Shown: positions 15,105 through 44,156, counted from the first letter of the stretch. The stretch: 64,000 bases of DNA from Oscillospiraceae bacterium (GCA_015065325.1 SVQO01000002.1:93005-157004), one strand, 5' to 3'. The notes: generated by a model from the letters alone, not told the origin. A program made the numbers and translations.

Positions 15105-15113
15105 AGAGATTCA

Positions 15114-15223
15114 GGGGACTTTTGAAAAAGTCCCCCGAACCCCTCAAAACTTTCAAACGAAAAATCCCTTTTATAAAGTTTTCGGAGGTTTGGAACCCCT
15201 TTTTCAAAAGGGTTCCAAGAAAA
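15114..15223 (+). repeat. Bipartite hairpin element, copy 1 (candidate structured RNA or protein-binding repeat)
   Basis: Hairpin A is GGGGACTTT-TGAA-AAAGTCCCC (15114..15135). After a 49-nt spacer comes GAGGTTTGGAACCC..GGGTTCCAAGAAAA (15185..15223). Same layout as 30282..30391. Confidence 0.6.
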
Positions 15224-15424
15224 GAATTTCTTTCAAAAACTTCCAAAAAAAGAAAAAACACCCCTTTCCCACCCTATTCCCCACCCCCTCAAAAAAAATA
15301 CAATTTTTCCCCACCCCAAAAAAGAGAGGTGGGTGGGGACTTTCGGCAGAAATCTCGGGATAATATAGATAGCAAATGAAAGGGAACGATAGTTCCCTAA
15401 TTTGACACCAAGGAGGAATGAAAC

Positions 15425-18400
15425 GTGAAAAAACGGATATTAAGCTTATTGCTGACGTTGGTGATGCTCATAGGTCTCGTGCCCACGGCGGCATTCCCCG
15501 TCTTTGCGGAGGAGTCGGAGGAGCAGCCTAGCGTTGACAGCGAGGGCAATATCCTTATCTGGTCCTACGAACAGCTCGTCAGTGTTGCACAGAATGCCCG
15601 GATCAATGAAAGCTATCGCCTGGCGACGGATATTTACCAAACGGATAACTCCAACGATCTGGGAATTTGGGTCAGGTGCGACAGCCTTTGGCTGGATCTG
15701 AACGGTCACGTGCTGTCCCGCGAGACAAGGTCGCTGGATTCGGCGTTGTTTTTCGTGTGTGATGGTTCAACGCTGAACATCTATGACTCCTCGCCCGACA
15801 GTACCGGCACCTGCATCTACAATAATAACTATGTTTCTGACCCTTGCAGCGTGATCAATAACAGTGGCGGCAATGTGATCATCAACGGAGGCAACTACAT
15901 CGTCAAAATGGACAACCCCTCAGCCGAAGCCGCCGTATTATACGGCACTTCGGGTGAGTTTACGGTGTACGATGGCTACTTTGACTCTACCCAAGCAAGT
16001 AACGGCAACGCAGTGAAAATGCATTATAGTAACTCTCTCTACGATGAGCCCGACTGTATTATCTACGGCGGTAGGTTCTATAGCAAAAAAACTTGTATCG
16101 AAGCGGGGAGTCTTGCCAACTATTCCGATGTGTATTATCCCTATGTGTTTGTGTTGGGCGGCGAATTTTACACCAAAAGGATCAACGGCGATGAGTATGA
16201 AGGTAATTTCGCCTATTGTAACAACGGCTGGGGACGTGTCATTGCGGCAAACGGTCTGGTGCCCGCGAGATCGTTGAATGCGAGGGATCAGCGGTACGCC
16301 ACGGGCACCACGACAACGGTTGAAACGCTGACAGGAGAGCCCGGCAACGGCTGGGAATATGCTACCGTGACGCCCCCGCCTCGCATCGTAAGCGAGCAGC
16401 TGCCGAAGGAAGACCGCTGGTATTCCCTGTGCTGGCGTGACTACCTGAAAGCGGCAAAAGAGAATGAAAGCTACGATTTTTGGACTGCGAACCAAGAGGC
16501 GATCGAAGCGGAATTGGCAAAGATCGACGGATTTTCGGTCAATATATTCGATACCGAGGTCACTCTCAGCATTGAGGATAAGAAAGAGATCGATTCCGTT
16601 CGCTGGTACGTTTCCGCCTCTCCCGACTCAGGCTGGACAGAGCTTGTCGATTATCAAAACATCACCGGCCCCGTCACGCAGGATCCTCCAAATCCCGGGA
16701 AAACTCTTTATTATCGAGCTGTGGTCACCCGCAAAGGCGGCACCGAATACGAGGATATTATCTACGTAAACTGCAAAGAGCCTAAAAAGGTCAATGTTTC
16801 CGCCGATTTCTCCGGCACACCGTCAAACGCAACCTCCAACACCGACGGTGTTAAGGTAACCTCTACCAAGTGGTATAAGAAGAGCGGTTCCGACTGGGTA
16901 CAGCTCAGTGCATCCGACACCATCAAGGAAGGATATGCCTACCGCTGTGAGATAACTGTTGGCGCAACCGGTACTTTTACGTTTGCAGACGGCTACACCG
17001 TAGAAATTAACGGCATTGCCGCAACCAAGAAATCCGGCAATACCTGGTATGTGGACAGAACCCTTACCGGATATACAAGTTACGTAGACGTTTACGACAT
17101 TGCTCTGCCGGAGGCAGGTGCAAAGCCTGACTTTACCTATAACGACGAGGACTGCCGTCACAGCAGTGTTGCTCTTGTGGAGTGGTTTGAGTGTGATAAG
17201 GACGGCAAGAAACTGAGCGGTGCTTTATCCGCAGACTACAAATTCAAAGAGGATGCCTACTACCGTCTGGAAGTCACCGCAGTACCGGATGCAAATTATA
17301 AGTTTGATACAAGTACCCTTGGCTTCTATATCGGTCCAAAGGCAGTTCAGTTCTACTACCCCTATCAGGATACTACTTATCCTGACAGTGTGACCGGTTG
17401 GAAAGTATACCACGTGGACGATGCCAATGGCACCTATACCGTTCAGATCGGAGATATTACCCTGAAGGACGGCGACTATCTTGCAAACAATGCAACAGCT
17501 GTTACGACCACCAAGCCCTCCGGCGGCTATGCCTACTATAAGGACGGCGTGCTGACGCTGAACAATTTCGTAGCCGCAAAGCTTGTTCGCTACTATGAAA
17601 GATATCTTGAAGTAGAGCTGATCGGTGAGAACAAGATCGGCGCCATTGCAGATTACTACTATTGGGACACTACCTCCAATGATTATTTCACCGGTCTGGA
17701 GTTTTGCGGTGACGGCGATCTGGAATTTGATGACTACTACGATGCCCCGTGCTGCAACGTCAGCGTTAACGGTGACGTGTTCTTCAATGGCAGCGGCGAC
17801 ATTCTTCTCGATGCTGAATTTAATTGTTTCCAGTATACCGATAACGTGATCATCAATGACGGTTATGTGTATTGCTACTGTTCTCAATTCTGTGTGTTCG
17901 GTGATGATACGAACATCACGGTGAACGGCGGCAAGCTGAAAATGTATGACGGCGGCAGCTGGTACGATTATTTCATCTGTGACGGTGATCTTTTGATCTA
18001 CGCAGGCAGCGTGTACGTAAGTACTGATCCGAATAAAACCGAATTGGCAGACTGTGTGCCTTGGGACGGCGTAACTGATCTCAATACCTATGAATGCGTA
18101 TGGATCGTGGAGGAAAGTGCGACTGTCACCCACACCGTAACCTTTAAGGTAGACACTACTACCGTAGCCACCAAGACTGTTGAGGGCGGCAAGACCGTAA
18201 CTGCACCTGCCGATCCCGTGAAGGGCGATTACGACTTCTTCGGTTGGTATACCGACGACGGCGAACTCTTCGATTTTGTTACTCCCATCACCACAGATCT
18301 CACCTTGACCGCAAAATTCGGTTATAACGTATTCTTCTGGCTGGATCCTTCTGATGAATATCCTGTTGCATGGCGTGATGCAGAACCGGGACAGACAATT

Positions 18401-18739
18401 GAGGAACAAGGCGAACCCGGTCGGGTGGGTATGGTCTTTGTCGGTTGGTTTACGGATCCCGTCGGCGGCACGAAGTTCGACTACTCCACACCCATCACGG
18501 GGCGTCTTAACCTTTATGCAAGATTCGCGCCCGCTTCCTCTTACCTCAAGGGCGACGTAGACGGAAACGGCGTGGTGGATATGGACGATGCCATTTATCT
18601 CTTGTTCGCCATCAACTTCCCCGAAAGCTACCCCTTAAATCAGCCCGCAAACTTTGACGGAGTAGGCGAGGAGGATATGGATGATGCCATTTATCTTCTG
18701 TTCCACGTGAATTTCTCTGCAAATTATCCGCTACATTGA
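15425..18739 (+). CDS. Large secreted protein: beta-helix-like repeats, two Listeria-Bacteroides-type repeats, C-terminal dockerin-like module
   Basis: GTG start 8 nt after AAGGAGG, with a signal peptide. G/N-rich segments (NNSGGNVIINGGNYIV; ITVNGGKLKMYDGG). Two repeats of the type TVTFKVD..GKTVTAPADPVKGDYDFFGWYTDDGELFDF. The C-terminus has GDVDGNGVVDMDDAIYLLF and NFDGVGEEDMDDAIYLLF. Confidence 0.8.
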   Translation: MKKRILSLLLTLVMLIGLVPTAAFPVFAEESEEQPSVDSEGNILIWSYEQLVSVAQNARINESYRLATDIYQTDNSNDLGIWVRCDSLWLDLNGHVLSRETRSLDSALFFVCDGSTLNIYDSSPDSTGTCIYNNNYVSDPCSVINNSGGNVIINGGNYIVKMDNPSAEAAVLYGTSGEFTVYDGYFDSTQASNGNAVKMHYSNSLYDEPDCIIYGGRFYSKKTCIEAGSLANYSDVYYPYVFVLGGEFYTKRINGDEYEGNFAYCNNGWGRVIAANGLVPARSLNARDQRYATGTTTTVETLTGEPGNGWEYATVTPPPRIVSEQLPKEDRWYSLCWRDYLKAAKENESYDFWTANQEAIEAELAKIDGFSVNIFDTEVTLSIEDKKEIDSVRWYVSASPDSGWTELVDYQNITGPVTQDPPNPGKTLYYRAVVTRKGGTEYEDIIYVNCKEPKKVNVSADFSGTPSNATSNTDGVKVTSTKWYKKSGSDWVQLSASDTIKEGYAYRCEITVGATGTFTFADGYTVEINGIAATKKSGNTWYVDRTLTGYTSYVDVYDIALPEAGAKPDFTYNDEDCRHSSVALVEWFECDKDGKKLSGALSADYKFKEDAYYRLEVTAVPDANYKFDTSTLGFYIGPKAVQFYYPYQDTTYPDSVTGWKVYHVDDANGTYTVQIGDITLKDGDYLANNATAVTTTKPSGGYAYYKDGVLTLNNFVAAKLVRYYERYLEVELIGENKIGAIADYYYWDTTSNDYFTGLEFCGDGDLEFDDYYDAPCCNVSVNGDVFFNGSGDILLDAEFNCFQYTDNVIINDGYVYCYCSQFCVFGDDTNITVNGGKLKMYDGGSWYDYFICDGDLLIYAGSVYVSTDPNKTELADCVPWDGVTDLNTYECVWIVEESATVTHTVTFKVDTTTVATKTVEGGKTVTAPADPVKGDYDFFGWYTDDGELFDFVTPITTDLTLTAKFGYNVFFWLDPSDEYPVAWRDAEPGQTIEEQGEPGRVGMVFVGWFTDPVGGTKFDYSTPITGRLNLYARFAPASSYLKGDVDGNGVVDMDDAIYLLFAINFPESYPLNQPANFDGVGEEDMDDAIYLLFHVNFSANYPLH

Positions 18740-18755
18740 AAAAAACACAAACGAC

Positions 18756-18789
18756 AAAAAAGACAGACTCTCCCGAGTCTGTCTTTTTC
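18756..18789. terminator. Bidirectional terminator between convergent genes
   Basis: Stem AGACAGACTC / GAGTCTGTCT with loop TCCC, an A-run upstream and a T-run downstream. Confidence 0.8.
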
Positions 18790-18799
18790 GTTTTACTCC

Positions 18800-20074
18800 T
18801 TACAATACCCGAACGGGTCCTACGGGACGAATGGAAAGCACCATACAAGCACCCTCTCCGAACACGCCCTCCATCAACGCGCGAAACTCCTCTACCTTTT
18901 CCGCGGGAATGAAGTTTTGCGTGGTACCGCCGAAGCCGCCGCCGTGAATGCGGCAGGCTCCCTTACCGTCCAAAAAATTTGCGGCAAGGTTCAGTGCAAC
19001 GGCGGCTCCCTGATCTGCGTTCTCCATGGGGATCCAGACGTTGCCGAGTGCCTGAAAGGAGGACTGCCCGGAACGGTTCACAAGGGCAAGGAATCGGCAA
19101 AAATCTCCGTCCTTCAACGCCTTTGCCTGCTCCGTTACGCGGTCGGTCTCCAGACAGAAGTGCAAGGCGGCAAGAGCGGCCTCGTCCCCTGCTTTCCTGC
19201 GGACGCGGGGCAGCTGAGACAAAAGAAGATCAAAGGAGATCTCACAAAGCTTCTCCTTGCCGAAAAGCTTTGCCACCTGCTTCATACGCTGAGGGATCGC
19301 GGCGTATAAATGGGTTAAATCGGAGTGGTCGCCCCCCGGCTTCACAAGGCACAGCTTATGGCCGGACGCGGCAAAGGAAAAGGGAATGGGCTCGATGACG
19401 GGATTTTTCTCATCGGCAAAATCCATCATACTGATCCCGCCCACGGCGCAAGCCGCCTGATCCATCAAGCCACAGGGCTTTCCGAAGTATTCGCGCTCGG
19501 CAAACTGAGAGATTTTTGCGATCTCTACCGCTCCCACGTTGCCGGAATTGTAAAGGTGATTGAAGACCGTTCCCAAAAGCACCTCGAAAGCGGCGGAGGA
19601 GGAAACACCGCTTCCCTTGGGCACACAGCTCTCCGTGTAAGCGGTAAAGCCGCCCACGGCAAAGCCGCGGTCAAGAAAGCCCTTTGCCACACCGCGGATC
19701 AGAGCGGCGCTTTTTCCGAATTCCCCTTTTTTCACGGCAAGGTCGGACAAGCACACGGTATCGGGAGAGAATCCCTCGGAATGCACGTGGACCGTATCTC
19801 CGTTTTCACGCGCCACCACGGCGATCACGTCAAAATCCACACTGCCTGCCAGCACTCTGCCGCCGTTGTGATCCGTATGGTTTCCGCCGATCTCCGTTCT
19901 GCCGGGGGCAGAAAACACCGCCACGTCCTTTTCTGCTCCGAACAGTGCCTCGAAGGAATCCAAAGCCTTCAAATACCTTGCCTTCTGCACCTCGGCACGG
20001 TCGCCGTAAAGTGTGGTAAAAACGGCGTCTGCTTGATTCTCTTTTATATAAGCTCTCGCTTCCCGTAACTTCAT
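18800..20074 (-). CDS. galK: Galactokinase-family GHMP kinase
   Basis: PGRTEIGGNHTDHNGG (galactokinase signature variant) and the GHMP motif PKGSGVSSSAAFEV. The ATG at 20074 is 8 nt after GGAGG; the tracked start at 20080 is a TTG too close to the RBS. Confidence 0.7.
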   Translation of the reverse strand: MKLREARAYIKENQADAVFTTLYGDRAEVQKARYLKALDSFEALFGAEKDVAVFSAPGRTEIGGNHTDHNGGRVLAGSVDFDVIAVVARENGDTVHVHSEGFSPDTVCLSDLAVKKGEFGKSAALIRGVAKGFLDRGFAVGGFTAYTESCVPKGSGVSSSAAFEVLLGTVFNHLYNSGNVGAVEIAKISQFAEREYFGKPCGLMDQAACAVGGISMMDFADEKNPVIEPIPFSFAASGHKLCLVKPGGDHSDLTHLYAAIPQRMKQVAKLFGKEKLCEISFDLLLSQLPRVRRKAGDEAALAALHFCLETDRVTEQAKALKDGDFCRFLALVNRSGQSSFQALGNVWIPMENADQGAAVALNLAANFLDGKGACRIHGGGFGGTTQNFIPAEKVEEFRALMEGVFGEGACMVLSIRPVGPVRVL

Positions 20075-20154
20075 ATTCAATACCTCCCTGAATTCTGCCT
20101 TTTATTATATAGTTTGACAAAAAGAGTGTCAAGCGTATCGACAAAAAATACCAC

Positions 20155-20183
20155 TTGAATTATTGTACGGTTTATAGTACAAT
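20155..20183 (+). promoter_or_regulatory. Promoter of the WYL-regulator operon with an embedded inverted repeat (candidate operator)
   Basis: TTGAAT (20155..20160), a 17-nt spacer, then TACAAT (20178..20183). The inverted repeat ATTGTAC (20162..20168) / GTACAAT (20177..20183) covers the spacer and -10. A second palindrome, TTGACA-N7-TGTCAA, lies at about 20114..20132. Confidence 0.55.
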
Positions 20184-20206
20184 AAGGACGAAAAGGAGGG
20201 ATCACC

Positions 20207-21205
20207 GTGGCAAAATCATCCCGACAAAAACAAAAAATTCTATATTTGGCAAAATTTTTTCTGGAAGAAACCGACGAGGACCATCCCGCAAGTATGAGTG
20301 ACATTCTTGCCTACCTTTCCCGCGCAGGCATTGAGGCGGAACGCAAAAGCATTTATTCCGATCTGGAGGAGCTGAGTCTGTTCGGTCTGGATATCGTAAC
20401 GCTCCGAGGCAGAGGCGGCGGATATTTTTTGGGAGAACGGGATTTTCAGTTGCCCGAGGTTCGCCTTTTGGTGGATGCAGTGCAGTCCTCCCGCTTTCTC
20501 ACCCGCAAAAAAAGCGAGGAGCTGATCAAAAAGCTTCGCTCCCTCACCTCCCGACACCAATCCTCGGCACTAAGCCACACCGTGTCCGTTTCCGGACGGA
20601 TCAAAACCATGAACGAAAGCATCTACCGCAACGTGGATGCCATCGGCGGTGCCATTGAGCGGGGACACAAGATCCGTTTTCAGTATTTTGAATGGACGCC
20701 TGAGGGCAAAAAAAAGCTTCGCCGCGACGGGGAGCGCTACACCGTTTCCCCCTTCTTTCTGATCTGGGACAACGAGAATTATTACCTGATCGGCGTAGAG
20801 GAAAAAAGCGGCGAAAAACGGCATTTTCGCGTGGATAAGATGCTTTCCATCGAGGAGGTCGACCTGCTTCGCCAAGGGAAAGAACTTTTGGAGGGCGTAT
20901 CCCCCGCAGACTACGAAAACCGCGTATTCGGTATGTACGCAGGGAAGGAGGAGCGAGTCACTCTGCGATGGAGCAATTCCCTCAGCGGCGTCTTTTACGA
21001 CCGCTTCGGCGGCGATATGACTGTTCGCAAGGATGGAGACGGCTTTATCTCCTCCCACCGACTGATGATCAGCCCCGTATTTTACGCCTTTTTGATGGGC
21101 TTCGGCGGAGACGTGAAGATCCTGGAGCCCCAATGGGTCAAGGAGGAATTTTTCAACCTTGTGAAAAAGAATCTTGCCCCTTACGAAAGTGAGAACACCC
21201 TATGA
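20207..21205 (+). CDS. WYL domain transcriptional regulator (HTH-WYL)
   Basis: GTG start 6 nt after GGAGGG. N-terminal HTH-like segment (MSDILAYLSRAGIEAERKSIYSDLEEL). WYL-type core YTVSPFFLIWDNENYYLIGVEEKSGEKRHFRVDKM. Confidence 0.8.
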   Translation: MAKSSRQKQKILYLAKFFLEETDEDHPASMSDILAYLSRAGIEAERKSIYSDLEELSLFGLDIVTLRGRGGGYFLGERDFQLPEVRLLVDAVQSSRFLTRKKSEELIKKLRSLTSRHQSSALSHTVSVSGRIKTMNESIYRNVDAIGGAIERGHKIRFQYFEWTPEGKKKLRRDGERYTVSPFFLIWDNENYYLIGVEEKSGEKRHFRVDKMLSIEEVDLLRQGKELLEGVSPADYENRVFGMYAGKEERVTLRWSNSLSGVFYDRFGGDMTVRKDGDGFISSHRLMISPVFYAFLMGFGGDVKILEPQWVKEEFFNLVKKNLAPYESENTL

Positions 21206-22347
21206 AAAAAAGCTTACTTTTTCTGTCCCTTTCCCTGTTGCTTTGCACTCTGTTGAGCTTCGGGGCACAGGGCGCCTCCAAGGGAAGAATGTCCTTGAGC
21301 GGCGAGCTGACGGATCTGAAGCCGGGCAGCACCGTGGAGCTTACGGTTCTCCTCAACCAAAATCCCGGCGTCACCTCTCTGCGCTGCACGGTGGGCTTTG
21401 ACCCCAAGGTGCTGAAATTCGTTTCCGCAAAAGGAACGAAGACCCTGCCCGATTTCAGCTTTGAGGAACGGGAGGACGGAGTCCTTCTTCGATGGAACAG
21501 CGAAACGGATACCGTAGCCGCAGGCGAGGTGGCAAAGCTCACGCTGCGGGTAAAAAAGAACGCGCTTTTCGGAGACAGTGCCGTGACCCTTTCCGTTTCC
21601 GAAGCACTGTTCGACGCACAAAACAGCCGCGGGGAAGCCGTCCCCTTTGATACCGCGGGAATGAGCTTTACCCTGTCCTGTCCCCACGACGATCCCGAAC
21701 AGACCGTCGAGCTGGAGCCCACCTTCGAAACGGAGGGAATTCTGAAGCAGACCTGTCCCGTTTGCGGAAACGCGGATCTTCTTCCTCTGCTCCCCGAGGT
21801 GGAAAGCGCCGACGGCAGAGTGAAGGTCGCCTTTGCCGCAGGAGAGTTTTCCAACGGCAACCGCGTGGACGTGTTCATCGATCCCCTCTTTGCAGTCACG
21901 GAGGAGAAGGAAGCGCGGAAAATGCTGGGCAGCGATATGCTCCGTGCCTTTCGCATCCGTATTCTGAAGGACGGGGAGCCTTATATCCCCATTCGGGACT
22001 GCACCGTCAGCCTCCGCTACGACGCCTTTCTGCCCGAGGGGACGGTGCTTTACCTTCTGATGGACGGCGGTGCCTTACAACCGAAATTCACCCGCGAGGG
22101 ATCGGTCCTGACGTTTTCTTACAGCCCCGAGCTGTTCGCTCTGGTTGCCCGCACCCCTTACGAGGAGCCCGAGGTGCCTACGACCACCGCAAAGCCCACC
22201 ACCGCCACCGTCCGTCCCACCACCACCGAGGATCCCGTGGAAAAAGCACGGAGAAAGGATCTTTTTCTCATCGCCGCTGGCTGTGTTACCCTGCTTTTGT
22301 GCGGGACGGGAATGATCCTGCTTCTCGGGAGAAGAAAGCGTTTCTGA
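21202..22347 (+). CDS. Membrane-anchored cohesin-like surface protein
   Basis: ATGA overlap with the WYL gene stop. Signal peptide. LKPGSTVELTVLLNQNPGVTSLRCTVGFDPKVLKFVSAKG follows the cohesin consensus pattern (KPGDTV..V......G....F.Y DP.VL). Pro/Thr linker PTTTAKPTTATVRPTTTEDP, one C-terminal TM helix, then RRKRF. Confidence 0.7.
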   Translation: MKKSLLFLSLSLLLCTLLSFGAQGASKGRMSLSGELTDLKPGSTVELTVLLNQNPGVTSLRCTVGFDPKVLKFVSAKGTKTLPDFSFEEREDGVLLRWNSETDTVAAGEVAKLTLRVKKNALFGDSAVTLSVSEALFDAQNSRGEAVPFDTAGMSFTLSCPHDDPEQTVELEPTFETEGILKQTCPVCGNADLLPLLPEVESADGRVKVAFAAGEFSNGNRVDVFIDPLFAVTEEKEARKMLGSDMLRAFRIRILKDGEPYIPIRDCTVSLRYDAFLPEGTVLYLLMDGGALQPKFTREGSVLTFSYSPELFALVARTPYEEPEVPTTTAKPTTATVRPTTTEDPVEKARRKDLFLIAAGCVTLLLCGTGMILLLGRRKRF

Positions 22348-22451
22348 TGCTTCCTTAACCGTTTTTAAAAAAACACTTTACAAAGTTAATTTTTATAGAA
22401 CAAAATGTTCTTTTTTTCACGGACATTTCCATCTTTTCCTGCAAATTCTCC

Positions 22452-22480
22452 TTGACATTCCGACACTTTATATATATAAT
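22452..22480 (+). promoter_or_regulatory. Consensus sigma-A promoter of the hydrogenase operon
   Basis: TTGACA (22452..22457), a 17-nt spacer, then TATAAT (22475..22480). Both hexamers are perfect. Confidence 0.8.
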
Positions 22481-22585
22481 TTATAAGGTACGGCCATATT
22501 GATTTTGATATGGTTGATTGGGTACTCACTATCAAATTCCCGTGCCGCCCAATCGGTGCGGAAAAAAACATAAGGAGGGCTATTC

Positions 22586-23077
22586 ATGGCTCATTTAAGT
22601 GACGCGGCAGTAGCAAAGATCAACGAGATCTGCGATCGCTATGCCGACGAAAGAACACCCTTGATGATGATCCTGAGTGATATCCAGAAGGAATACGGCT
22701 ATATTCCCCTGGAGGTTCAGGAACTGGTCTCCGCAAAAACCGGAGTCAGCGTTGCCGAGATCTACGGTGTAGTAACCTTCTACTCCTTCTTCTCTCTCAA
22801 GCCCAAAGGAAAGTACATCATTGGCGTATGCCTCGGTACTGCTTGCTACGTAAAGGGTGCACAGCAGGTTATCGACAAATTTTCCGAGATCCTGAAGATC
22901 GCTCCCGGTGAGACCACCGAAGACGGTCTGTTTACCATTGATGCACTCCGCTGCATCGGTGCCTGCGGCATCGCTCCCGCAGTATCCATTAACGGAAAAG
23001 TTTACCCCAAGGTAGAAGTAAAGGCAATCCCCGGTATCATCGAGGAACTGCGCGCTGAGGGAGGTGCAAACGCATGA
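22586..23077 (+). CDS. hydC: [FeFe]-hydrogenase NuoE-like [2Fe-2S] subunit
   Basis: 163 aa, thioredoxin-like 2Fe-2S family with Cys pairs in GVCLGTACYV and RCIGACGIAP. First gene of a three-gene set with NuoF-like and HydA genes. Confidence 0.9.
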   Translation: MAHLSDAAVAKINEICDRYADERTPLMMILSDIQKEYGYIPLEVQELVSAKTGVSVAEIYGVVTFYSFFSLKPKGKYIIGVCLGTACYVKGAQQVIDKFSEILKIAPGETTEDGLFTIDALRCIGACGIAPAVSINGKVYPKVEVKAIPGIIEELRAEGGANA

Positions 23078-24957
23078 TTAAGAATTTTGAAGAACTGGAA
23101 GCAAAGCAGGCACAGTGTGCCAAGTGTATGGAAGGCAAGTTCCAGGGCGAAAGCGGTAAAAGAGCCGTCGTACTTTGCGGCGGTACCGGCTGTCTGTCCT
23201 CCAACTCTGCCGAGATCCAGCAGAAGTTCAAGGATCTGATCCGCGAGAAGGGTCTGGAAGAAAAGGTTACCGTCAACCAGGTCGGTTGCTTCGGTTTCTG
23301 CTCTCAGGGTCCCTTCGTAAAGATCTATCCCGAAGATACTCTTTACAGACTGGTTACTCTGGAAGACGTTGAGGAGATCGTTGAGAAGGACTTGATCGGC
23401 GGTGAGACCATCGAGAGACTTCTTTACATCGACCCCGTTACCCAGGAAAAGATCGCCAAGCAGGAGGACATCACCTTCTACAAGAAGCAGGTGAGAGTTG
23501 CTCTCCACGGTTGCGGCGTGATCAATCCCGAAGATATCAACGAGGCTCTGGGCGCCGACGCCTTCAAGGGTCTTGCTAAGGCTTTGAAGATGGACCGCAA
23601 GGCAGTTATCGATGAGATTTTGGCTTCCGGTCTCCGTGGCAGAGGCGGCGGAGGATTCCCCACCGGTATGAAGTGGACCTTCGCTTACAATCAGCCCGAC
23701 GGCGAGAAGTATGTTGTATGTAACGGCGACGAGGGTGACCCCGGCGCATTTATGGACCGTTCCATTCTGGAGGGCAACCCCCTTGCAGTTATCGAGGGTA
23801 TGGCAATCGCCGCTTACGCCATCGGTGCACAGAACGGTTACTTCTACGTTCGTGCTGAGTACCCCATCGCCGTAAACCGTTTGAAGCTGGCGATCAAGCA
23901 AGCTGAGGAGATCGGCCTTTTGGGTGACAACATTTTGGGTACCGACTTCTCCTTCCGCGCACACATCCGTCTGGGTGCAGGTGCATTCGTTTGCGGCGAG
24001 GAGACTGCTCTGTTGAACTCCATCGAGGGTCAGCGCGGTATGCCCCGTCCCCGTCCTCCCTTCCCTGCAGTAAAGGGTCTGTGGGATTGTCCCACCATCG
24101 TAAACAACGTAGAGACTTTGGCTTGCGTTCCCTACGTTCTCCGCAACGGTGCTGACTCCGTGAAGCAGTACGGTACCGAAAAGAGTGCAGGCACCAAGGT
24201 ATTTGCTCTCGGCGGTAAGATCAACAACGTTGGTCTGGTTGAGATCCCCATGGGTACCACTCTGCGCGAGCTGATCTACGACATCGGCGGCGGTATCCCC
24301 GACGGCAAGAAGTTTAAGGCAATTCAGACCGGCGGTCCTTCCGGCGGATGTCTGACCGAAAAGGATCTGGACACCCCCATCGACTTCGACAACCTGGTTG
24401 CAAAGGGCTCTATGATGGGCTCCGGCGGCGCAATCGTAATGGACGAAGACAACTGTATGGTTGACGTTGCAAAATTCTATATGGAGTTTATCTGCGACGA
24501 GTCCTGCGGTAAGTGTTCTCCCTGCCGTATCGGTACCAAGAGACTGCTCGAGTACCTCCAGAAGATCACCGACGGCAAGGCTACCATGAAGGATCTGGAA
24601 GAACTGGAAGAACTGGCTCAGACCATTAAGATCGGTTCTCTCTGCGCTCTGGGTCAGACCGCAGCAAACCCCGTACTTTCCACCCTGGCCTCCTTCCGCG
24701 ACGAGTACATCGCTCACATCGAGAAGAAGGAATGTCCCGCAAAGGTCTGCAAGAATCTGATGAAGTACACCATCGAGCAGGATAAGTGCTTCGGTTGCGG
24801 CGTATGCGCAAGAGCTTGTCCCGTTGATGCGATCCACAAGACCGACTACACCGCTCCCGGTAAGAAGCTTCCTTCCTACCAGATCGACGCTGACAAGTGC
24901 GTTAAGTGCGGTATGTGTATGTCTTCTTGTAAGTTCCACGCAATCGTAAAGAAATAA
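23074..24957 (+). CDS. hydB: [FeFe]-hydrogenase NuoF-like flavoprotein subunit
   Basis: GLRGRGGGGFPTGMKW FMN/NADH block and CGKCSPCR cluster motif. Two C-terminal ferredoxin motifs (CFGCGVCARACP, CVKCGMCMSSC). ATGA overlap with hydC. Confidence 0.9.
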   Translation: MIKNFEELEAKQAQCAKCMEGKFQGESGKRAVVLCGGTGCLSSNSAEIQQKFKDLIREKGLEEKVTVNQVGCFGFCSQGPFVKIYPEDTLYRLVTLEDVEEIVEKDLIGGETIERLLYIDPVTQEKIAKQEDITFYKKQVRVALHGCGVINPEDINEALGADAFKGLAKALKMDRKAVIDEILASGLRGRGGGGFPTGMKWTFAYNQPDGEKYVVCNGDEGDPGAFMDRSILEGNPLAVIEGMAIAAYAIGAQNGYFYVRAEYPIAVNRLKLAIKQAEEIGLLGDNILGTDFSFRAHIRLGAGAFVCGEETALLNSIEGQRGMPRPRPPFPAVKGLWDCPTIVNNVETLACVPYVLRNGADSVKQYGTEKSAGTKVFALGGKINNVGLVEIPMGTTLRELIYDIGGGIPDGKKFKAIQTGGPSGGCLTEKDLDTPIDFDNLVAKGSMMGSGGAIVMDEDNCMVDVAKFYMEFICDESCGKCSPCRIGTKRLLEYLQKITDGKATMKDLEELEELAQTIKIGSLCALGQTAANPVLSTLASFRDEYIAHIEKKECPAKVCKNLMKYTIEQDKCFGCGVCARACPVDAIHKTDYTAPGKKLPSYQIDADKCVKCGMCMSSCKFHAIVKK

Positions 24958-24972
24958 GGAGGAAAGCGGATC

Positions 24973-26778
24973 ATGGCAAAAATTAATTTGATTATCGAAG
25001 GTATCCCCTACGAAGTTGAAGCAGGGCTTACCGTTCTTGAAGCCGCTCGCCTTTGCGGCTATGAAATCCCCACCCTCTGCGCTTTCAACCACGGCGAGTG
25101 CAACAGAGGCTCCTGCCGTGTATGTCTGGTAGAGGTTCAGGAAGGCAGAAAGAACGACGCCGGCGAGGTTATGTACGGTCCTCAGCGTCTGGTTGCTTCC
25201 TGCGTTTACCCCATCACCCCCGACATGAAGGTCATCATCTCCTCCCCCAAGGCTACCGCTGCCCGCCGCGCTTCCGTAGAGCTGCTTCTCTCCAACCACT
25301 CTATGAAGTGCCAGCAGTGCGATAAGAACGAGAAGTGCGAGCTTCTCCACGTTGCAAAGATCACCGGTGCCAGAGAGGATATGTTCCTTGGTACTCAAAC
25401 CGAGACCACCTACGACGACGTTACCCCCTCCATCGTTCGCGACACCTCTAAGTGCGTGCTCTGCGGCAGATGCGTTGCCCGCTGTGCAAACGCTCACGGC
25501 GACGGCGTTTTGACCTTCCAGAACAGAGGCTTTAAGACTATCATCGGACCTGCGCAGAACAGAACCTTCGACAAGGCTCCCTGTATCATGTGCGGTCAGT
25601 GTATCAACGTATGTCCCACCGGTGCTCTGATGGAGAAGAACGACATTGCAAAGGTTGACGCTGCAATGGCTTCCGGCAAGTACGTAGTGGTTCAGACCGC
25701 TCCCGCAGTTCGTGCCGCTCTCGGTGAAGAGTTCGGTATGAAGATCGGTACTCCCGTTACCGGTAAGATGGTTGCGGCTCTCAGAAGACTGGGCTTCAAG
25801 AAGGTATTCGATACCAACTTTGCCGCAGACCTTACCATTATGGAAGAAGCTACCGAGCTGCTCGGCAGAATCAAGAACGGCGGCAAGCTTCCTATGATCA
25901 CCTCCTGCTCTCCCGGATGGGTCAATTACGCCGAGATCCGTTACAACGATCTTCTCGGTCACCTGTCCTCCTGCAAGTCTCCTCACGAAATGATGGGCTC
26001 CGTTCTGAAGCACTTCTGGGCTGAGAAGGCAGGCATCAAGGCAGAGGATCTGTTCGTTGTTTCCGTAATGCCCTGTTCCTCCAAGAAGTACGAGGCAGAT
26101 CGTGAACAGCTCAAGACCCGCGGTCTCAAGGACGTTGACGCAGTTCTCACCACCAGAGAGCTGGGCAGACTCATCAAGAGAAGCGGTATCAACTTTGTAA
26201 AGCTCCCCGATGAAGAATTTGATATGGACCTGATCGGTGAATACACCGGTGCAGGCGTTATCTTCGGTGTTACCGGCGGCGTTATGGAGGCTGCAGTTCG
26301 TACTGCTCACTTCGTTCTCACCGGCAAGGAGATCGAAGGCGTGAAGTTCGAAGCTGCCCGCGGCTTTGACGGCATCAAGGAAGCAAGCCTTGACCTCAAC
26401 GGTCAGACCATTAACATCGCAGTTGCTCACGGCATGAAGAATGCAAAGGTTCTGCTGGACCAGATCCGCGCAGGCGAGAGCAAGTATCACTTCATCGAGA
26501 TCATGGGATGCCCCGGCGGTTGTATCAACGGCGGCGGTCAGCCCTACGTGAGAGAGTGCTTCCTCCCCAACGAGGACGCTGACATTCTGGACACCTACAA
26601 GGCTAAGCGTGCCGCAGCCCTCTACTCCGAGGACGAGAGACAGACCGTTCGTCAGTCTCACAACAATCCTCAGATCAAGGCTCTGTACGAGCAGTTCCTT
26701 GGCGAGCCCAACTCTCACCTGGCGCACGAGCTTTTGCACACCGAATACGTTGCAAGAGTTCCCTTCCCCGAAAACTAA
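24973..26778 (+). CDS. hydA: [FeFe]-hydrogenase catalytic subunit
   Basis: N-terminal 2Fe-2S and 4Fe-4S Cys motifs (CVLCGRCVARC, CIMCGQCINVCP). H-cluster motifs MPCSSKKYE and EIMGCPGGCINGGGQP. The L1 motif reads TSCSPGW rather than TSCCPxW. Confidence 0.9.
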   Translation: MAKINLIIEGIPYEVEAGLTVLEAARLCGYEIPTLCAFNHGECNRGSCRVCLVEVQEGRKNDAGEVMYGPQRLVASCVYPITPDMKVIISSPKATAARRASVELLLSNHSMKCQQCDKNEKCELLHVAKITGAREDMFLGTQTETTYDDVTPSIVRDTSKCVLCGRCVARCANAHGDGVLTFQNRGFKTIIGPAQNRTFDKAPCIMCGQCINVCPTGALMEKNDIAKVDAAMASGKYVVVQTAPAVRAALGEEFGMKIGTPVTGKMVAALRRLGFKKVFDTNFAADLTIMEEATELLGRIKNGGKLPMITSCSPGWVNYAEIRYNDLLGHLSSCKSPHEMMGSVLKHFWAEKAGIKAEDLFVVSVMPCSSKKYEADREQLKTRGLKDVDAVLTTRELGRLIKRSGINFVKLPDEEFDMDLIGEYTGAGVIFGVTGGVMEAAVRTAHFVLTGKEIEGVKFEAARGFDGIKEASLDLNGQTINIAVAHGMKNAKVLLDQIRAGESKYHFIEIMGCPGGCINGGGQPYVRECFLPNEDADILDTYKAKRAAALYSEDERQTVRQSHNNPQIKALYEQFLGEPNSHLAHELLHTEYVARVPFPEN

Positions 26779-26790
26779 GCAAAGCCAAAA

Positions 26791-26821
26791 AGGACTCCGA
26801 ACAATCGGAGTCCTTTTTTTG
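26791..26821 (+). terminator. Terminator of the hydrogenase operon
   Basis: Stem AGGACTCCGA / TCGGAGTCCT with loop ACAA, followed by T7. Confidence 0.85.
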
Positions 26822-26849
26822 TTGAAAAATCCACCTTTTCTGTTATAAT
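26822..26849 (+). promoter_or_regulatory. Promoter of the GH89-like gene
   Basis: TTGAAA (26822..26827), a 16-nt spacer, then TATAAT (26844..26849). Confidence 0.6.
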
Positions 26850-26912
26850 TTGAGTTGCAAAAGAAAATTAAAAAAGGTATTCTATAGATATTACAGAAAG
26901 GAGCGAAACGTT

Positions 26913-29141
26913 ATGAAAATTTTTGCCGCTATCAAAGTTTTTTCTCTTGCCGCAGAAGAACTGGGAAGATTTTGTAAAAAGATCACCGACAAAGAAGCCG
27001 AAATTACCCGCGCCCTCCCTCATTCGGATGATACCGTCTTCCTTTGCCCTACAAACCACCCCCTTGCCGATCCTCGCGTCCGAGAAAACAGCGACGAATT
27101 TGCCATCGTTTCTCACAAGGAAAACGGAAGAACCCTGCTTGTCATCACGGCAGGCAGACCGCGCGCCGCCTTTTACGGAGTTTACGCCTTTCTGGAAGAA
27201 GCGGCAGGCTGTCACTATTTTTGGGACGGCGACGTGATCCCCAAAGCGCCCTCCATTCCTTTAGAAAACTTTGATCTGTACGAAAAGCCTCGCTTCGAAT
27301 ACCGCGCCATTCGTTATTTTGCCCACCGTAGTTTGCACCGTTTTCAGGCGGAGCATTGGAGCTTTGAGGATTGGAAACGGGAAATAGACTGGATGCTCAA
27401 GCGCCGTCTGAATCTCTTTATGCTACGCATCGGCACCGACGACCTGTTTCAGCGCGCTTTTCCCGATATCGTCCCCTATCCCTCCAACGAAGAACCGCTC
27501 CCCGAGCAAATGAAAGGGTATGATGATCGAACCACCTTTTGGTCTCTGCAATTCCGCGGACAATTGAGAAAACAGATTCTGGACTATGCCTTCCGGCACG
27601 ATCTTTTACACCCGGAGGATTGCGGAACAATGACCCATTGGTATTCCAGAACCCCTCTTGCATTTTTGGAAAAGGTTAAGCCTGCCTTGATGCAACAAAA
27701 AAGCGCAGGCTATTCCGAGCAAACAGGGCTGGCATGGGATATTACCGACGAAAAAAATCTGAAAAATTATCAGCACCTGACCCAAACCCACATCAAAGAA
27801 TTCGGAAAGCCTGAAATTTTTCACACCATCGGTCTGGCAGAACGCTCTATGAACGGAGACCGCGAAGAAGGCTTTTTCATTAAAAAACACGCCTACGATA
27901 CCGTTACCGATTTTGTCCGCAAAAATTATCCCAAAGCGCCCATCCTCGTTGCCGCCTGGGATTTCTACTTCACGTATTATGCGGAGGAAGTGCGGAAAAT
28001 GATTCACACCTTCGACCCGCAAACCCACATTATTCTGGACTACACCGTAGATCTGAAGAAAACCCAAAACGATTTTGAACAGTGGGACGTGGTGGGAAAA
28101 TTCCCCTATATCTTCGGTATTTTCCACGGCTATCAGCCCCAAAGCCATATCCACGGCGACTATGCCTATCTGGATCAAAAACTAAAGGTAGCGGACGAAG
28201 ATTCCTTCTGCAAGGGAATGGCATACTGGCCCGAGCTGTCTCATAGCGACACCTTGATGCTGGAATATTTTACCGACAATGCTTGGCGCCCCGACTATCT
28301 CTCCTTGGAAGAAAAGGTAGCGCGCTTCTGCAAAAAGCGTTACGGCATCCATGCCAAGGCAATGCAGGAGGTTTGGACAGCCTTTATCCCCTTGTACGAG
28401 CTTACCAAGGATCAGCGCTATGACATGAGTAGTTTCTTCCACCTGTTTGAAAACAACAGAATTGCAAAGCGTCTCTGGAAGCGAGATGACCCCAAGCACA
28501 CGGATGCGGTTGTCAAAGCTCGGAACAAGGTAGCCGAAGGAAAAGCCGCTTTCTCCGATATGGAAAAAGCACTGTCCAAACTTGCTTCCCTCCCCAAAGA
28601 GCTTTTGGAAAATGAATTCATCGCAAGAGATTCCCTTGATCTTTTAAGAACCATTGCGGAGCGCAAACTCGACGTGGAAGTTCTATCAGCCCTTTTAGCT
28701 TGGGTAGACGGAAATCCCGCGGAATTCTGCCAGAAGGAAAAGCCTTGCCTTTGCGGGATGGAATTGTTTGCGCGAATCCTTGCCGTCTCGGAAGAATTTT
28801 CCATTTATCATACCCACGAAAATCTAAAAACAGTCACAAACGTCAACCCCTGCTTTGAAGAGACATTGAAAAACAATCTGATCAACAATTACTGCAGAAG
28901 CTCCGCTTGCGAAGCGGCACGCTTCGTATATCTGCCTGAAATGAAATTGCTGTTTGAAAAGCTTTCCAAAGCAATGCCCGATACCATTCCGGATTTCACC
29001 GAAGAAAAAAAGCAGGTCTTTTCTGAATTTTTATCCACTCCTTTGAGCGAGATGAAACCAAAAAAAGAAGACTTTTCCGAGGTTTGTAAAGATGCTTTAT
29101 CACAGTTTTTTTGCAACGAAGGGAACGGTCAAATTAAATAA
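26913..29141 (+). CDS. GH89-like (alpha-N-acetylglucosaminidase-like) glycoside hydrolase, no signal peptide
   Basis: ATG at 26913 lies 9 nt after AAAGGAG. HWSFEDWKREIDWMLKRRLNLFML parallels the NAGLU block W.W.RWEREIDWMALNGINL. Candidate catalytic Glu residues sit in GLAERS and YWPELS, and a ...RFCKKRYG block is present. Motif-level call only. Confidence 0.55.
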   Translation: MKIFAAIKVFSLAAEELGRFCKKITDKEAEITRALPHSDDTVFLCPTNHPLADPRVRENSDEFAIVSHKENGRTLLVITAGRPRAAFYGVYAFLEEAAGCHYFWDGDVIPKAPSIPLENFDLYEKPRFEYRAIRYFAHRSLHRFQAEHWSFEDWKREIDWMLKRRLNLFMLRIGTDDLFQRAFPDIVPYPSNEEPLPEQMKGYDDRTTFWSLQFRGQLRKQILDYAFRHDLLHPEDCGTMTHWYSRTPLAFLEKVKPALMQQKSAGYSEQTGLAWDITDEKNLKNYQHLTQTHIKEFGKPEIFHTIGLAERSMNGDREEGFFIKKHAYDTVTDFVRKNYPKAPILVAAWDFYFTYYAEEVRKMIHTFDPQTHIILDYTVDLKKTQNDFEQWDVVGKFPYIFGIFHGYQPQSHIHGDYAYLDQKLKVADEDSFCKGMAYWPELSHSDTLMLEYFTDNAWRPDYLSLEEKVARFCKKRYGIHAKAMQEVWTAFIPLYELTKDQRYDMSSFFHLFENNRIAKRLWKRDDPKHTDAVVKARNKVAEGKAAFSDMEKALSKLASLPKELLENEFIARDSLDLLRTIAERKLDVEVLSALLAWVDGNPAEFCQKEKPCLCGMELFARILAVSEEFSIYHTHENLKTVTNVNPCFEETLKNNLINNYCRSSACEAARFVYLPEMKLLFEKLSKAMPDTIPDFTEEKKQVFSEFLSTPLSEMKPKKEDFSEVCKDALSQFFCNEGNGQIK

Positions 29142-29201
29142 TTCTTGCGCGGAAAGCAGTTTTATGCTATAATTTTCTCAGTAAATTCAGGAGGATCCAA
29201 A

Positions 29202-30218
29202 ATGTCAAATTATATCCGCGTCAACGACTTTGCACCAAAAAACGGAGAATTGACCCTGTTCTGTAAAAAGGTCGGCACCAAAAAGTCCGACGGCTTTGCC
29301 ATTGTGGAAAACGACAAGGTTTACGTGATTGACGCAGGCAGAGGGGATGACAGAGAGCTGCACCTGTTTTTGAGGGAGCTCCGTGAAAAATGGTTATCCA
29401 ATCAAGACGACGCAAGCCTTTTGGAGGATGAAAACGCCAGGCTTGAGATCCATATTATCGTATCCCATCCCCATCCCGACCACATTGCGGCGTTTAAATA
29501 CCTTCTTCCCGATTTTAAGCTTTGCATTATGAGCATCATTGCACCTATGCGCGCCTACCTTAGTCTGGACGTCCCCGGTGCTTTGGAAAAGCTGACGGCT
29601 TTTGAGGACAGACTGGAACTGTATGAGAAAATGCTCCCCGTATACCTCCATCCCTGCCGCGAGATCACACGGGTGCCTTACGGTGAAAAGCAAACGATCC
29701 GCCTTCCCGACAGCAATACGGTGCTGGATCTGTACCCCTCCCAATTCGATTGGTCCGAGGACCGTCCCAGTGAGTCCGAGGGCATTCGCTTTCTGAAAAA
29801 ATACCTATCTCCCACCTATGCGGACGATCCCGAGCACGGCTACTCCAACGGTGCCGCCAACGGAAATTCCCTCTGGGTCAAGATCACCAAGGGAAGCTCC
29901 GTTGCCCTCATTACCGGCGATCAGCGCGCCTCTGACGAAATGCTGGGCTCTATGATCCGCTACTACGGCGAGGAGGAATTCCGCTGCGATATTCTCAAGC
30001 TCCCCCACCACGGAGAAAAGAATTACCCGCCCTATCTGCTTTCCGTCGCTCAGCCCACCGTTACCATTTTCACCTGCGCAGAAGGATATGACACCCCCGA
30101 AACTCAGGATATTTGCGAACGCATCAGCGATGTTTATTACCTCCGTGACGGAAACCTGTTCTTCCGCATTACGGAAAACTCCATCACTCCCTACGGTATC
30201 TCCCCACGCAAACGCTGA
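29202..30218 (+). CDS. MBL-fold metallo-hydrolase (ComEC-type beta-lactamase domain)
   Basis: ATG at 29202 follows AGGAGGA. HxHxDH motif VSHPHPDHIAAF and a LKLPHHGEKN block. Confidence 0.75.
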   Translation: MSNYIRVNDFAPKNGELTLFCKKVGTKKSDGFAIVENDKVYVIDAGRGDDRELHLFLRELREKWLSNQDDASLLEDENARLEIHIIVSHPHPDHIAAFKYLLPDFKLCIMSIIAPMRAYLSLDVPGALEKLTAFEDRLELYEKMLPVYLHPCREITRVPYGEKQTIRLPDSNTVLDLYPSQFDWSEDRPSESEGIRFLKKYLSPTYADDPEHGYSNGAANGNSLWVKITKGSSVALITGDQRASDEMLGSMIRYYGEEEFRCDILKLPHHGEKNYPPYLLSVAQPTVTIFTCAEGYDTPETQDICERISDVYYLRDGNLFFRITENSITPYGISPRKR

Positions 30219-30225
30219 ATTAAAA

Positions 30226-30255
30226 AACCTCGATGAAATTCATCGAGGTTTTTTT
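30226..30255 (+). terminator. Terminator after the MBL gene
   Basis: Long stem AACCTCGATGAA / TTCATCGAGGTT followed by T7. Confidence 0.8.
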
Positions 30256-30281
30256 GACTTGTTCATTTTTATAAAACGAGC

Positions 30282-30391
30282 CTTCTTTCTTTGAAAAGAA
30301 AGAAGCAAAGAAACTTTCCACCAAACAGAATTCCTGTTTGTGATACGTTTTTAGAGGTTTGGAACCTTTTTACAAAAAGGTTCCAAGAAAA
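30282..30391 (+). repeat. Bipartite hairpin element, copy 2
   Basis: Hairpin A' is CTTCTTTCTT-TGAA-AAGAAAGAAG (30282..30305). After a 48-nt spacer comes GAGGTTTGGAACC..GGTTCCAAGAAAA (30354..30391), containing the 13-bp palindrome TTGGAACCTTTTT/AAAAAGGTTCCAA. Confidence 0.6.
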
Positions 30392-44054: not shown

Positions 44055-44113
44055 AGCTTCTCTCCTTGTGGGAAAATTCTGATTTCATCATATCACAAGA
44101 AAAAACAAAGGTC

Positions 44114-44156
44114 AACCGAATTTTCCATTGCAAAATAAAAAAAGCCGTGATACAAT
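44114..44156 (+). promoter_or_regulatory. Array promoter 1 with a degenerate box
   Basis: Box AACCGAATTTTCCATTG (44114..44130), TTGCAA (44128..44133), a 17-nt spacer, then TACAAT (44151..44156). Confidence 0.6.

Follow-up and report, generated by a model that had tools for sequence, protein, structure and literature searches.

The window analysed here is a stretch of 64,000 nucleotides from an Oscillospiraceae bacterium (GCA_015065325.1, SVQO01000002.1:93005-157004) in which two intergenic regions each carry a pair of palindromes. Unit A starts 9 nt past the TAA of a Melibiase/GH27 gene and adjoins the gene for an 1104-aa Flg_new surface protein, and unit B lies between a metallo-beta-lactamase (MBL)-fold gene and a minus-strand permease gene; the GH27/Melibiase, MBL and permease identities come from Pfam. 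A first-pass annotation had described the two as copies of a single ~110-nt bipartite hairpin element. Our analysis indicates that each copy is probably a mosaic of two oppositely oriented modules belonging to a dispersed repeat of triplex type, similar to repetitive extragenic palindromic (REP) and BoxC elements, one subtype of which carries a Shine-Dalgarno (SD) sequence and appears to have been co-opted at other loci.

Units A and B and their modules

When the window sequence was re-read, the bases and coordinates first given for both copies proved accurate base for base, including the arms of hairpin 1, the shared spacer motif AAACTTTC, and the spacers of 49 nt (unit A) and 48 nt (unit B) that separate hairpins 1 and 2. 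The conserved string in which hairpin 2 is embedded is equally real: exact copies of GAGGTTTGGAACC stand at 15185 and 30354, those of GGTTCCAAGAAAA at 15211 and 30379, two of each in the window and with like spacing between them in both units. Given that ~0.002 exact occurrences of any one 13-mer are expected in 128 kb, two exact 13-mers at equal spacing in two places lie well past chance. The conserved block is larger than first described, reaching ~15 nt further 5′ through AAAG-TTTTC-GGAGG. Other parts of the initial description had to be revised. The TGAA assigned to hairpin 1 is not a free loop, since the palindromes run on to a 2-nt centre, and although the layout of the two copies does match, their hairpins do not share a strand: hairpin 1 is a minus-strand and hairpin 2 a plus-strand element. 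The spacer motif AAACTTTC, which had been taken as part of a one-strand bipartite unit, belongs to the hairpin 1 module on the minus strand. It is the reverse complement of a box, GAAAGTTT, composed of AAAG, a pyrimidine tract and G, which we call the U-box and which precedes every hairpin of the family described below; each window copy therefore consists of two modules placed back to back. On either strand, and as RNA or DNA, both regions are predicted to fold into three consecutive hairpins, with z-scores of -2.7 to -5.9 relative to shuffled sequences. The two U-boxes of one unit are inverted repeats of each other, and those of unit A form the middle hairpin of the predicted folds. Covariance-model and pattern scans found no further units in the window beyond A and B.

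The order of parts within a module is AAAG, a pyrimidine tract of 4-9 nt (the U-box), a G-rich linker, a lower stem and an upper stem. The linker is G, GT or GC in short-linker modules and G(G)AGG in SD-bearing modules; the lower stem is variable and G+C-rich; and the upper stem pairs a T-tract with an A-tract and is closed on a 2-nt centre. For hairpin-2-type modules the extended conserved block reads AAAG-TTYTT-GGAGG-TTTGGAACC-(T tract)-TC-(A tract)-GGTTCCAAG-AAAA, in which GGAGG stands directly against the 5′ foot of the hairpin.

Hairpin 1a (15114..15135, minus strand; GGGGACTTTT-GA-AAAAGTCCCC) can be lengthened through G·U pairs to a stem spanning 15104-15145 and is of a subfamily that we term GGGGRC-type. 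It aligns beside members of the same type at two other loci (L035 and L051), and the covariance model matches it weakly on the minus strand (15102-15163, 17.9 bits, E 0.21). The U-box of this module (15140..15154, minus strand; GAAAG-TTTT-G-AGGGG) is what appears on the plus strand as AAACTTTC, and its TTTT runs parallel to the AAAA of the minus-strand 3′ arm. Module 2a opens on the plus strand with a U-box and linker at 15175..15189 (AAAG-TTTTC-GGAGG-T), where GGAGG is an SD sequence and where TTTTC and GG match the AAAAG and GG of the 3′ arm in parallel order. Hairpin 2a itself (15190..15218, plus strand; TTGGAACCCC-TTTTT-C-AAAA-GGG-TTCCAA) has one C bulged, and its module scores 70.5 bits with the covariance model. 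A second U-box on the far flank (15230..15244, minus strand; GGAAG-TTTTT-GAAAG) makes hairpin 2a two-sided, and the minus-strand side is matched by the covariance model at 15189-15239 (26 bits, E 0.0022).

Hairpin 1b (30282..30305, minus strand; CTTCTTTCTTT-GA-AAAGAAAGAAG) forms part of a short-linker module without an SD sequence. The TTTCTTT in its U-box (30306..30319, minus strand; GGAAAG-TTTCTTT-G) is parallel to the AAAGAAA of the minus-strand 3′ arm. Module 2b consists of a U-box and linker at 30348..30357 (plus strand; TTTTT-AGAGG), with a degenerate AAAG head (ATACG), and hairpin 2b at 30358..30387 (plus strand; TTTGGAACC-TTTTT-AC-AAAAA-GGTTCCAAG), which reaches 68.8 bits. That hairpins 1a and 1b come from different subfamilies, GGGGRC-type and short-linker, accounts for the compensatory first stem noted in the first-pass annotation. 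Hairpin 1b lies past the terminator of the MBL-fold gene, a canonical bidirectional intrinsic terminator that we read from the sequence at 30222..30255 (A-run, CCTCGATGA/TCATCGAGG stem, T-run). Because unit B stands between this terminator and the stop of the permease gene at 30420, it falls inside the 3′ untranslated region (UTR) of the permease gene.

A dispersed repeat family with a mirror-related third block

A pattern scan of a collection holding one genome per species located the string at 54 loci in ~25 metagenome-assembled genomes (MAGs) of uncultured Clostridia, Eubacteriales and Oscillospiraceae, nearly all from the ruminant gut, with up to ~15 copies in one fragmented MAG. A covariance model built from these copies matched 231 sites across 400 kb, many of them with an altogether different lower stem (among them GCGGAACC, TTGGGGGC, GTGGGGGAC, TTCCAAGAACC, GCTCGAGAAAC, GTCAC and GTTAC), and pattern and covariance-model searches together put the family well above 100 members. 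Double compensatory changes were seen at each of the 14 modelled pairs, with 99.1% of cells paired, a result that none of 500 shuffles equalled; across 77 distinct hairpins there are 986 Watson-Crick pairs and 17 mismatches. The alignment used here was fitted to the covariance model, and RNAalifold run on a MAFFT alignment gives the same fold. In every member the upper stem pairs a T/C tract with an A/G tract in antiparallel orientation. The earlier proposal of stem replacement with a retained core was thus correct, since the family exists and its stems covary.

Known families did not account for these elements. Rfam 15 gave no match in the window at the gathering threshold, and the hits that an E-value scan returned for the element region lay far below it. 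Scans of 14 related loci found nothing at the elements, with Gut-1, 6S, tRNA, 16S and cobalamin matches elsewhere; a Gut-1 RNA (RF01706, 75.9 bits; L015 2853-2928) and a 6S RNA (L092 793-982) occur in member-carrying loci and are non-adjacent to the members there. No meaningful match was obtained by blastn against plasmids and phages, a scan of viral contigs found 3 that carry the string, and a literature search by sequence string returned just primers and synthetic ribosome-binding sites. The repeat superfamily is previously undescribed and unannotated, in uncultured Clostridia that are abundant in rumen and gut.

Other genomes contain clusters and tandem arrays of modules with G+C-rich hairpins, and canonical terminators with a hairpin and T-run stand beside modules in the same spacers. 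Two local elaborations were seen. Five loci of MAG JAFWBD01 (L006, L009, L022, L049 and L051) iterate the 3′ half-word GGTTCCAAGAA 2-4 times after the hairpin, as in AGGTTCCAAGAAGGGTTCCAAGAAGGGTTCCAAAAAA, and at six loci (L029, L037, L039, L043, L017 and L040) mini-hairpins of sequence GGGGCGAAGCCCC or GAGGCGAAGCCTC lie 3′ of short-linker or type-B modules. These mini-hairpins contain GCGAAGC, which forms an exceptionally stable DNA mini-hairpin, and hint at single-stranded DNA biology.

The U-box is a mirror of the 5′ arm; that is, it matches the 3′ purine arm in parallel order, with T over A, C over G and G over G. Examples are TTTTCTT / G / GTTAC-TTCTTTT-TC-AAAAGAA-GTAAC, the U-box TTCTTTTC followed by CTTTTCTT-TC-AAGAAAAG, and the U-box TCTTTGGG followed by CCCTTTCT and AGAAAGGG; window modules 1a, 1b, 2a and 2b all obey the same rule. 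A purpose-written parser distinguished 106 types, 34 with asymmetric tracts. Of these 34, 20 fit the purine arm solely in the parallel sense and none solely in the antiparallel sense; a further 8 fit either way and 6 fit neither. When U-boxes were exchanged among hairpins, parallel-only types numbered 4-6.7, and the observed 20 was not attained in any of 2000 shuffles. The asymmetric tracts comprise 10 distinct patterns, one of which, TTCTTT, is shared by modules with 6 different lower stems. In 27 of 33 SD-type elements the G-runs are of matching length, and where the 5′ arm has drifted through G·U pairs, the U-box tracks the purine arm (L041 and L046). The correspondence extends to coordinated change: module 1b reads TTTCTTT / CTTTCTTT / AAAGAAAG (U-box / 5′ arm / 3′ arm) in the window and TTTTCTTTC / CCTTTCTTTT / AAAAGAAAGG in a relative with 88% MBL identity (L192), and further three-way changes were found at the ecfA locus (L005 versus L040 and L042) and the aroA locus (L029 versus L043).

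Simpler relations between the U-box and the hairpin were tried and rejected. Antiparallel Watson-Crick pairing with the 3′ arm, as in an anti-hairpin switch, is contradicted by the lack of antiparallel-only types among those with asymmetric tracts; pairing with the conserved tail CCAAGAA fits the TTCTT variant only, and the U-box varies with the hairpin core; and a reading of the U-box as a DNA copy of one arm, direct or inverted, fails because the relation is one of mirror symmetry. We know of no templated DNA process that makes mirror repeats. With antiparallel pairing excluded as well, the fold that fits has the U-box running along the major groove of the upper stem, where it would act as a Hoogsteen third strand. 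We infer an intrastrand triplex geometry of the Y·R-Y type, which in the nomenclature of PMC4666352 would place the U-box strand in class IV (pyrimidine motif) and its complement in class II (purine motif). A loop of 2-6 nt joins the pyrimidine block to the purine block. Among the sources consulted, this three-way covariation is the clearest comparative evidence so far for a selected intrastrand triplex geometry in bacteria, and whether such geometry is under selection has been an open question for the BoxC and PIT elements since 2000.

Genomic placement, turnover and probable split ribosome-binding sites

Placement was examined for 97-105 parsed members, using gene calls from an iterated codon-usage model. 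Between co-directional genes, 24 members are in sense and 28 in antisense orientation; 13-15 occupy convergent spacers, 2 only divergent spacers, and 6 of 105 lie inside called genes. The hairpin end is 4-50 nt from a gene boundary, a start codon if sense and a stop codon if antisense, and the U-box side faces a spacer of 75-800 nt that is itself repeated sequence in several genomes. Mismatches are of the G·T and A·C kinds in roughly equal number (9 and 5). The first-pass annotation had left the choice between a structured RNA and a REP- or MITE-like repeat (MITE, miniature inverted-repeat transposable element). The even orientation, the balance of G·T and A·C, the 2-nt centre and the lack of an Rfam match support the latter half of that proposal, in the form of a REP/BoxC-like repeat, and disfavour a strand-specific RNA.

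The elements turn over between close relatives. A 320-nt spacer of the window is identical in all 8 same-species contigs examined. The closest relative (L186, GCA_054271455.1), whose GH27 gene is 83% identical, lacks the window segment 15105-18755, with unit A at its edge immediately downstream of the GH27 gene; at L186 3998-4082 the GH27 stop runs directly into the terminator that corresponds to window 18756-18790, and unit A and the 1104-aa Flg_new gene thus constitute one indel. As to the MBL/permease spacer, the relative at 88% MBL identity has both hairpin 1b and hairpin 2b, the one at 83% identity (L191) has 1b and lacks 2b, and in one at 80% identity neither hairpin is found within the 95 nt of sequence available. 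No direct repeats flank the copies in the loci inspected, and orthologue comparisons show larger indels only; the hairpin arms could be read as terminal inverted repeats.

At other loci the SD-bearing subtype stands directly before the ATG of genes from more than 12 housekeeping families. In 24 distinct open reading frames (ORFs), the ATG lies 2-14 nt (median 5) past the 3′ foot of the hairpin, with no other SD in between, and the encoded N-termini are ones that we take to be AroA, MnmE, TruA, IspG, XseA, EcfA, LeuC, a histidine-phosphatase and others. Because the linear distance from SD to AUG is ~35-45 nt at these loci, translation would have to rely on the hairpin drawing the two together, and folding would restore a normal spacing. 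A glycyl-radical-enzyme-like gene in 7 species has a module upstream and keeps its own SD. Neither window hairpin 2a nor 2b has an ATG, GTG or TTG opening an ORF within 14 nt. From the arrangement of these sequences we infer that the SD-bearing subtype has been co-opted elsewhere as a hairpin-split translation start. Precedents exist in phage T4 genes 38 and 25, where SD and AUG are bridged by a hairpin whose folding restores functional spacing. The likeness lies in the parting of SD from AUG by a stable hairpin, here with GGAGG at the 5′ foot and ATG 2-14 nt past the 3′ foot; in contrast to the single, gene-specific T4 cases, one cassette recurs here before more than 12 unrelated housekeeping families in several species, and the two window copies are not so used.

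Sequence matching part of the hairpin 2 module is found more widely, and across phyla. The 8-bp stem of that module, UUGGAACC/GGUUCCAA, is present together with GGAGG in soil bacteria of high G+C content and in contigs from the human gut, and the 20-nt string AGGTTTGGAACC...GGTTCCAA was found, among the metagenome matches listed, in contigs of both kinds. The soil copies have a short GC hairpin top and no U-box, and are preceded by GGG and a G+C-rich hairpin; loci L055-L174 (for example L113, L139 and L111) read GGG-AGGTTTGGAACCC-loop-GGGTTCCAA with the conserved GC hairpin GGCGGGCTTTGCCCGCC on the 5′ side. Some are tandemly repeated with a period of 43 nt or 79 nt (L148 6160-6250, L072 3146-3251), and some lie 2-6 nt before plausible starts, such as MKVHLIGIAGTG and a malic-enzyme-like N-terminus. 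Their enrichment near start codons is weak (18 of 60, versus 10 of 60 controls). A separate arrangement, seen at L067 2930-3040 and in ~50 similar human-gut contigs, is a conserved array between an HxlR-like regulator gene and a convergent tRNA, comprising in order a GGAAAGGGAAAC...CCCTTTCC hairpin, a GGAGG-TTTGGAACCC-ATTACGAAAC-GGGTTCCAA hairpin, and GTTTTTG-TTACTTTTT-AGCAT-AAAAAGTAA. This array has no Rfam hit and could be a small RNA.

Relation to known repeats and competing explanations

The nearest analogues are intrastrand triplex repeats. PIT elements were reportedly described by Hoyne et al. in 2000, with loops of 0-10 nt between blocks. TMECO, BoxC and PIT elements, known from E. coli and other bacteria, are always intergenic, have no orientation bias and no link to mobile elements, and lie in unusually variable neighbourhoods (Holder et al. 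2015, PMC4666352). The present family resembles them in having three consecutive blocks on one strand, an inverted repeat plus a mirror-related third block; in offering the complementary triplex class on the other strand; and in being multi-copy, intergenic, orientation-neutral, unlinked to known mobile elements and variable in locus between close relatives. BoxC, however, is G/C-rich, conforms to CCCTCNCCC-N3-6-GGGNGAGGG-N3-GGGNGAGGG, is a class II purine motif and has loops of 3-6 nt, whereas our elements are rich in A/T, would be class IV when read on the U-box strand and class II on the other, and bear no resemblance to that consensus. It also differs in placing a lower stem of 5-11 bp, paired by Watson-Crick bonds only, between the third strand and the triplex core, and in embedding an SD sequence in one subtype. 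Since ITxF allows loops of 1-6 nt only, the family would probably escape an ITxF search.

Similarities to REPs and their mosaic clusters (BIMEs) include palindromes of 20-40 nt, compensatory stem changes, many extragenic copies at gene 3′ ends, mosaic clusters in alternating orientation and a species-specific consensus. The GTAG/GTGG head at the 5′ foot of REPs is absent, its place being taken by AAAG and a pyrimidine tract, and REPs lack a mirror-related third block. MITEs and the small Firmicute repeats BOX, RUP and SPRITE are short, non-coding, dispersed stem-loops that sometimes supply expression signals; the present modules are by comparison much shorter (35-60 nt) and mosaic, and neither target-site duplications nor an autonomous partner was seen. 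RNA major-groove triple helices, such as ENE/MALAT1 and the SAM-II and preQ1-II pseudoknots (PMC7583470), share the order U-rich Hoogsteen strand, U-rich Watson-Crick strand, A-rich strand, and have U·A-U stacks broken by C+·G-C, but those are single-copy functional RNAs on a defined strand, unlike the present orientation-neutral genomic repeats, whose folding as RNA is putative. We assign the elements, whose architecture is distinctive, to the general class of dispersed palindromic and intrastrand-triplex repeats as new members of it.

We consider it probable, then, that the window copies are mosaics of two opposite modules of a triplex-type, REP/BoxC-like dispersed repeat, the SD subtype of which has been put to use at other loci. 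When the DNA is single-stranded, or when the U-box strand is transcribed, the U-box would serve the upper stem as a Hoogsteen third strand, lying in its major groove, and structure rather than sequence would be maintained. Modules would gather at gene ends whichever way they point, group together with terminator-like hairpins, and come and go from one species to the next. The window units are most likely structural passengers in 3′ flanks, and any effect at these loci might be that of 3′ stem-loop barriers.

Several observations weigh against this reading. The third block is connected to the pyrimidine block by 6-16 nt that include the Watson-Crick-only lower stem, a connection out of keeping with the short loops of intrastrand triplex motifs, and the TTCCAAGAACC subtype, in which 2-4 linker nt would have to span 9-11 bp, is sterically doubtful. 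Parallel G·G-C triplets are non-isomorphic with T·A-T (PMC4807104), and the mirror rule is broken by the minus-side element of L007, by L028, by the member at L033:77 and partly by L191. Neither a mobilising enzyme, nor a target-site duplication, nor a clean element-only insertion polymorphism was found in the 8-kb loci, in which no RAYT search was made; the survey itself was drawn from 8-kb pieces of MAGs, which bears on copy number per genome and on replication-strand bias. Of the first 57 copies, ~35% have a start codon no more than 18 nt away, where roughly 5% would be expected if intergenic placement were random, an excess that suggests RNA-level selection on the SD-bearing subtype at least.

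The last point also speaks for an element that works as RNA, in which the transcribed U-box strand would fold into a U·A-U / C+·G-C triple-helix hairpin that presents or masks the SD or blocks exonucleases. RNA can adopt pyrimidine-motif triplexes but not the purine motif (PMC4666352; review PMC7583470), the 24 ORFs depend on an SD upstream of the hairpin, the module is conserved before the glycyl-radical-enzyme-like gene, and candidate promoter-like hexamers were noted by eye 25-45 nt upstream of the U-box in two genomes. Yet sense and antisense placements are about balanced, G·T is unenriched over A·C, complementarity persists to a 2-nt centre, too small for the loop of an RNA hairpin, and short-linker modules lack an SD altogether, so that we regard this explanation as unlikely. 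Its corollary, that the window copies are active 5′- or 3′-UTR elements and not passengers, is to our minds unlikely too: neither hairpin-2 module there has a start codon within 14 nt, and the plus-strand module of unit B lies past a strong terminator, antisense to the only transcript expected to run through it. The original model of a plus-strand structured RNA gene or cis-element of ~110 nt in two copies is barely credible. It drew on the common layout and strand of the copies and on their folding significantly better than shuffled sequence, but in other genomes the halves are found apart from each other and in any order or orientation, the spacer motif common to both copies is part of a minus-strand module, the relative L191 retains hairpin 1b without 2b, Rfam has no match, and the plus strand of unit B is again behind a terminator.

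Read on the complement strand, the modules present a hairpin, CCUCC, a purine box and UUU, 5-50 nt after stops, and could be construed as unconventional terminators or 3′-end stabilisers. The hairpin faces the stop codon of an oncoming gene in 57 of ~90 placements (median ~25 nt), divergent spacers are avoided, hairpin 1b scored as terminator-like on the minus strand, and hairpin 1a follows the GH27 stop by 9 nt with no other terminator close by. That they are not standard intrinsic terminators had been recognised at the outset from the missing T-run behind either hairpin, and this held up: there is no T-run within 2 nt of 1a, 2a or 2b on either strand, and the minus-strand score of 1b was weak. 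More generally, the U-run, where there is one, has only 3-4 U and stands ~14 nt off the stem, and it is missing in, for example, the JBJDZI copies and module 2b; canonical terminators stand in the same spacers, equally many modules point the other way, and BoxC/PIT, the nearest analogue, was found to have no terminator activity (PMC4666352); a terminator function is quite improbable. Still less probable, and very much so, are palindromic operators bound by a protein dimer, for example a nucleoid protein or global regulator, with half-sites TTCTTGGA / TCCAAGAA / GGTTCC. The palindromes are near-perfect, words recur in rearranged form, as in type A and type B hairpins, and GGTTCCAAGAA is tandemly iterated in one genome. 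Against this, lower stems are swapped wholesale with complementarity kept (GCGGAACC, TTGGGGGC, GTCAC, GTTAC and GCTCGAGAAAC), which a sequence-reading protein could not tolerate; stem length differs by several bp; modules avoid divergent promoter spacers; and the mirror relation of the U-box is meaningless for recognition of duplex DNA. Readings of hairpin 2 as a sigma-54, ECF or sigma-70 promoter were discarded for wrong hexamers and 3-nt spacing variation, judged by eye, and for an empty promoter scan, and those as an integron attC site, CRISPR repeat or tRNA T-arm for unfit core motifs and, at L148, tandem copies without spacers.

For the dispersed-repeat interpretation that we prefer, the practical consequence is that recognising the superfamily helps intergenic annotation, the interpretation of assembly breaks and the calling of start codons, as genes behind SD-hairpin modules seem to have no ribosome-binding site. 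The mirror symmetry, the SD embedded in the hairpin-2 modules and the split ribosome-binding sites elsewhere were overlooked in the first-pass annotation. Hairpin-split SD and AUG sequences, known from isolated phage genes, would here form a reusable cassette for many housekeeping genes. A bolder speculation, and a rather unlikely one, is a bacterial RNA triple-helix device in which a U·A-U/C+·G-C clamp would hold the SD at the foot of the helix as a portable translation-initiation cassette. If so, a protonation- or Mg-sensitive, exonuclease-resistant cassette would have spread before the housekeeping genes of gut Clostridia, and the 8-bp stem UUGGAACC/GGUUCCAA would be a ribosome-recognised structure instead of a repeat relic.

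Other features of the window were noted as well. Downstream of unit A, a separate C-rich/G-rich hairpin (CCCCACCCC-AAAAAAGAGA-GGTGGGTGGGG) occupies 15296-15341, and long A/C-rich runs lie between the unit and the ribosome-binding site of the 1104-aa gene; neither are family members. A minus-strand 748-aa ORF (6069-8315) with Cohesin and PAS_3 hits contains 6-7 tandem 153-nt repeats, 84-90% identical, at 6293-7357. At the other end of the window, 44066-64000 holds at least 13 tandem paralogous genes of ~480 aa on the plus strand with lipoprotein-like signal peptides (MKK...LCLPLCAC), an unusually large expansion whose sole Pfam hit, to neutral/alkaline ceramidase, is below cutoff.

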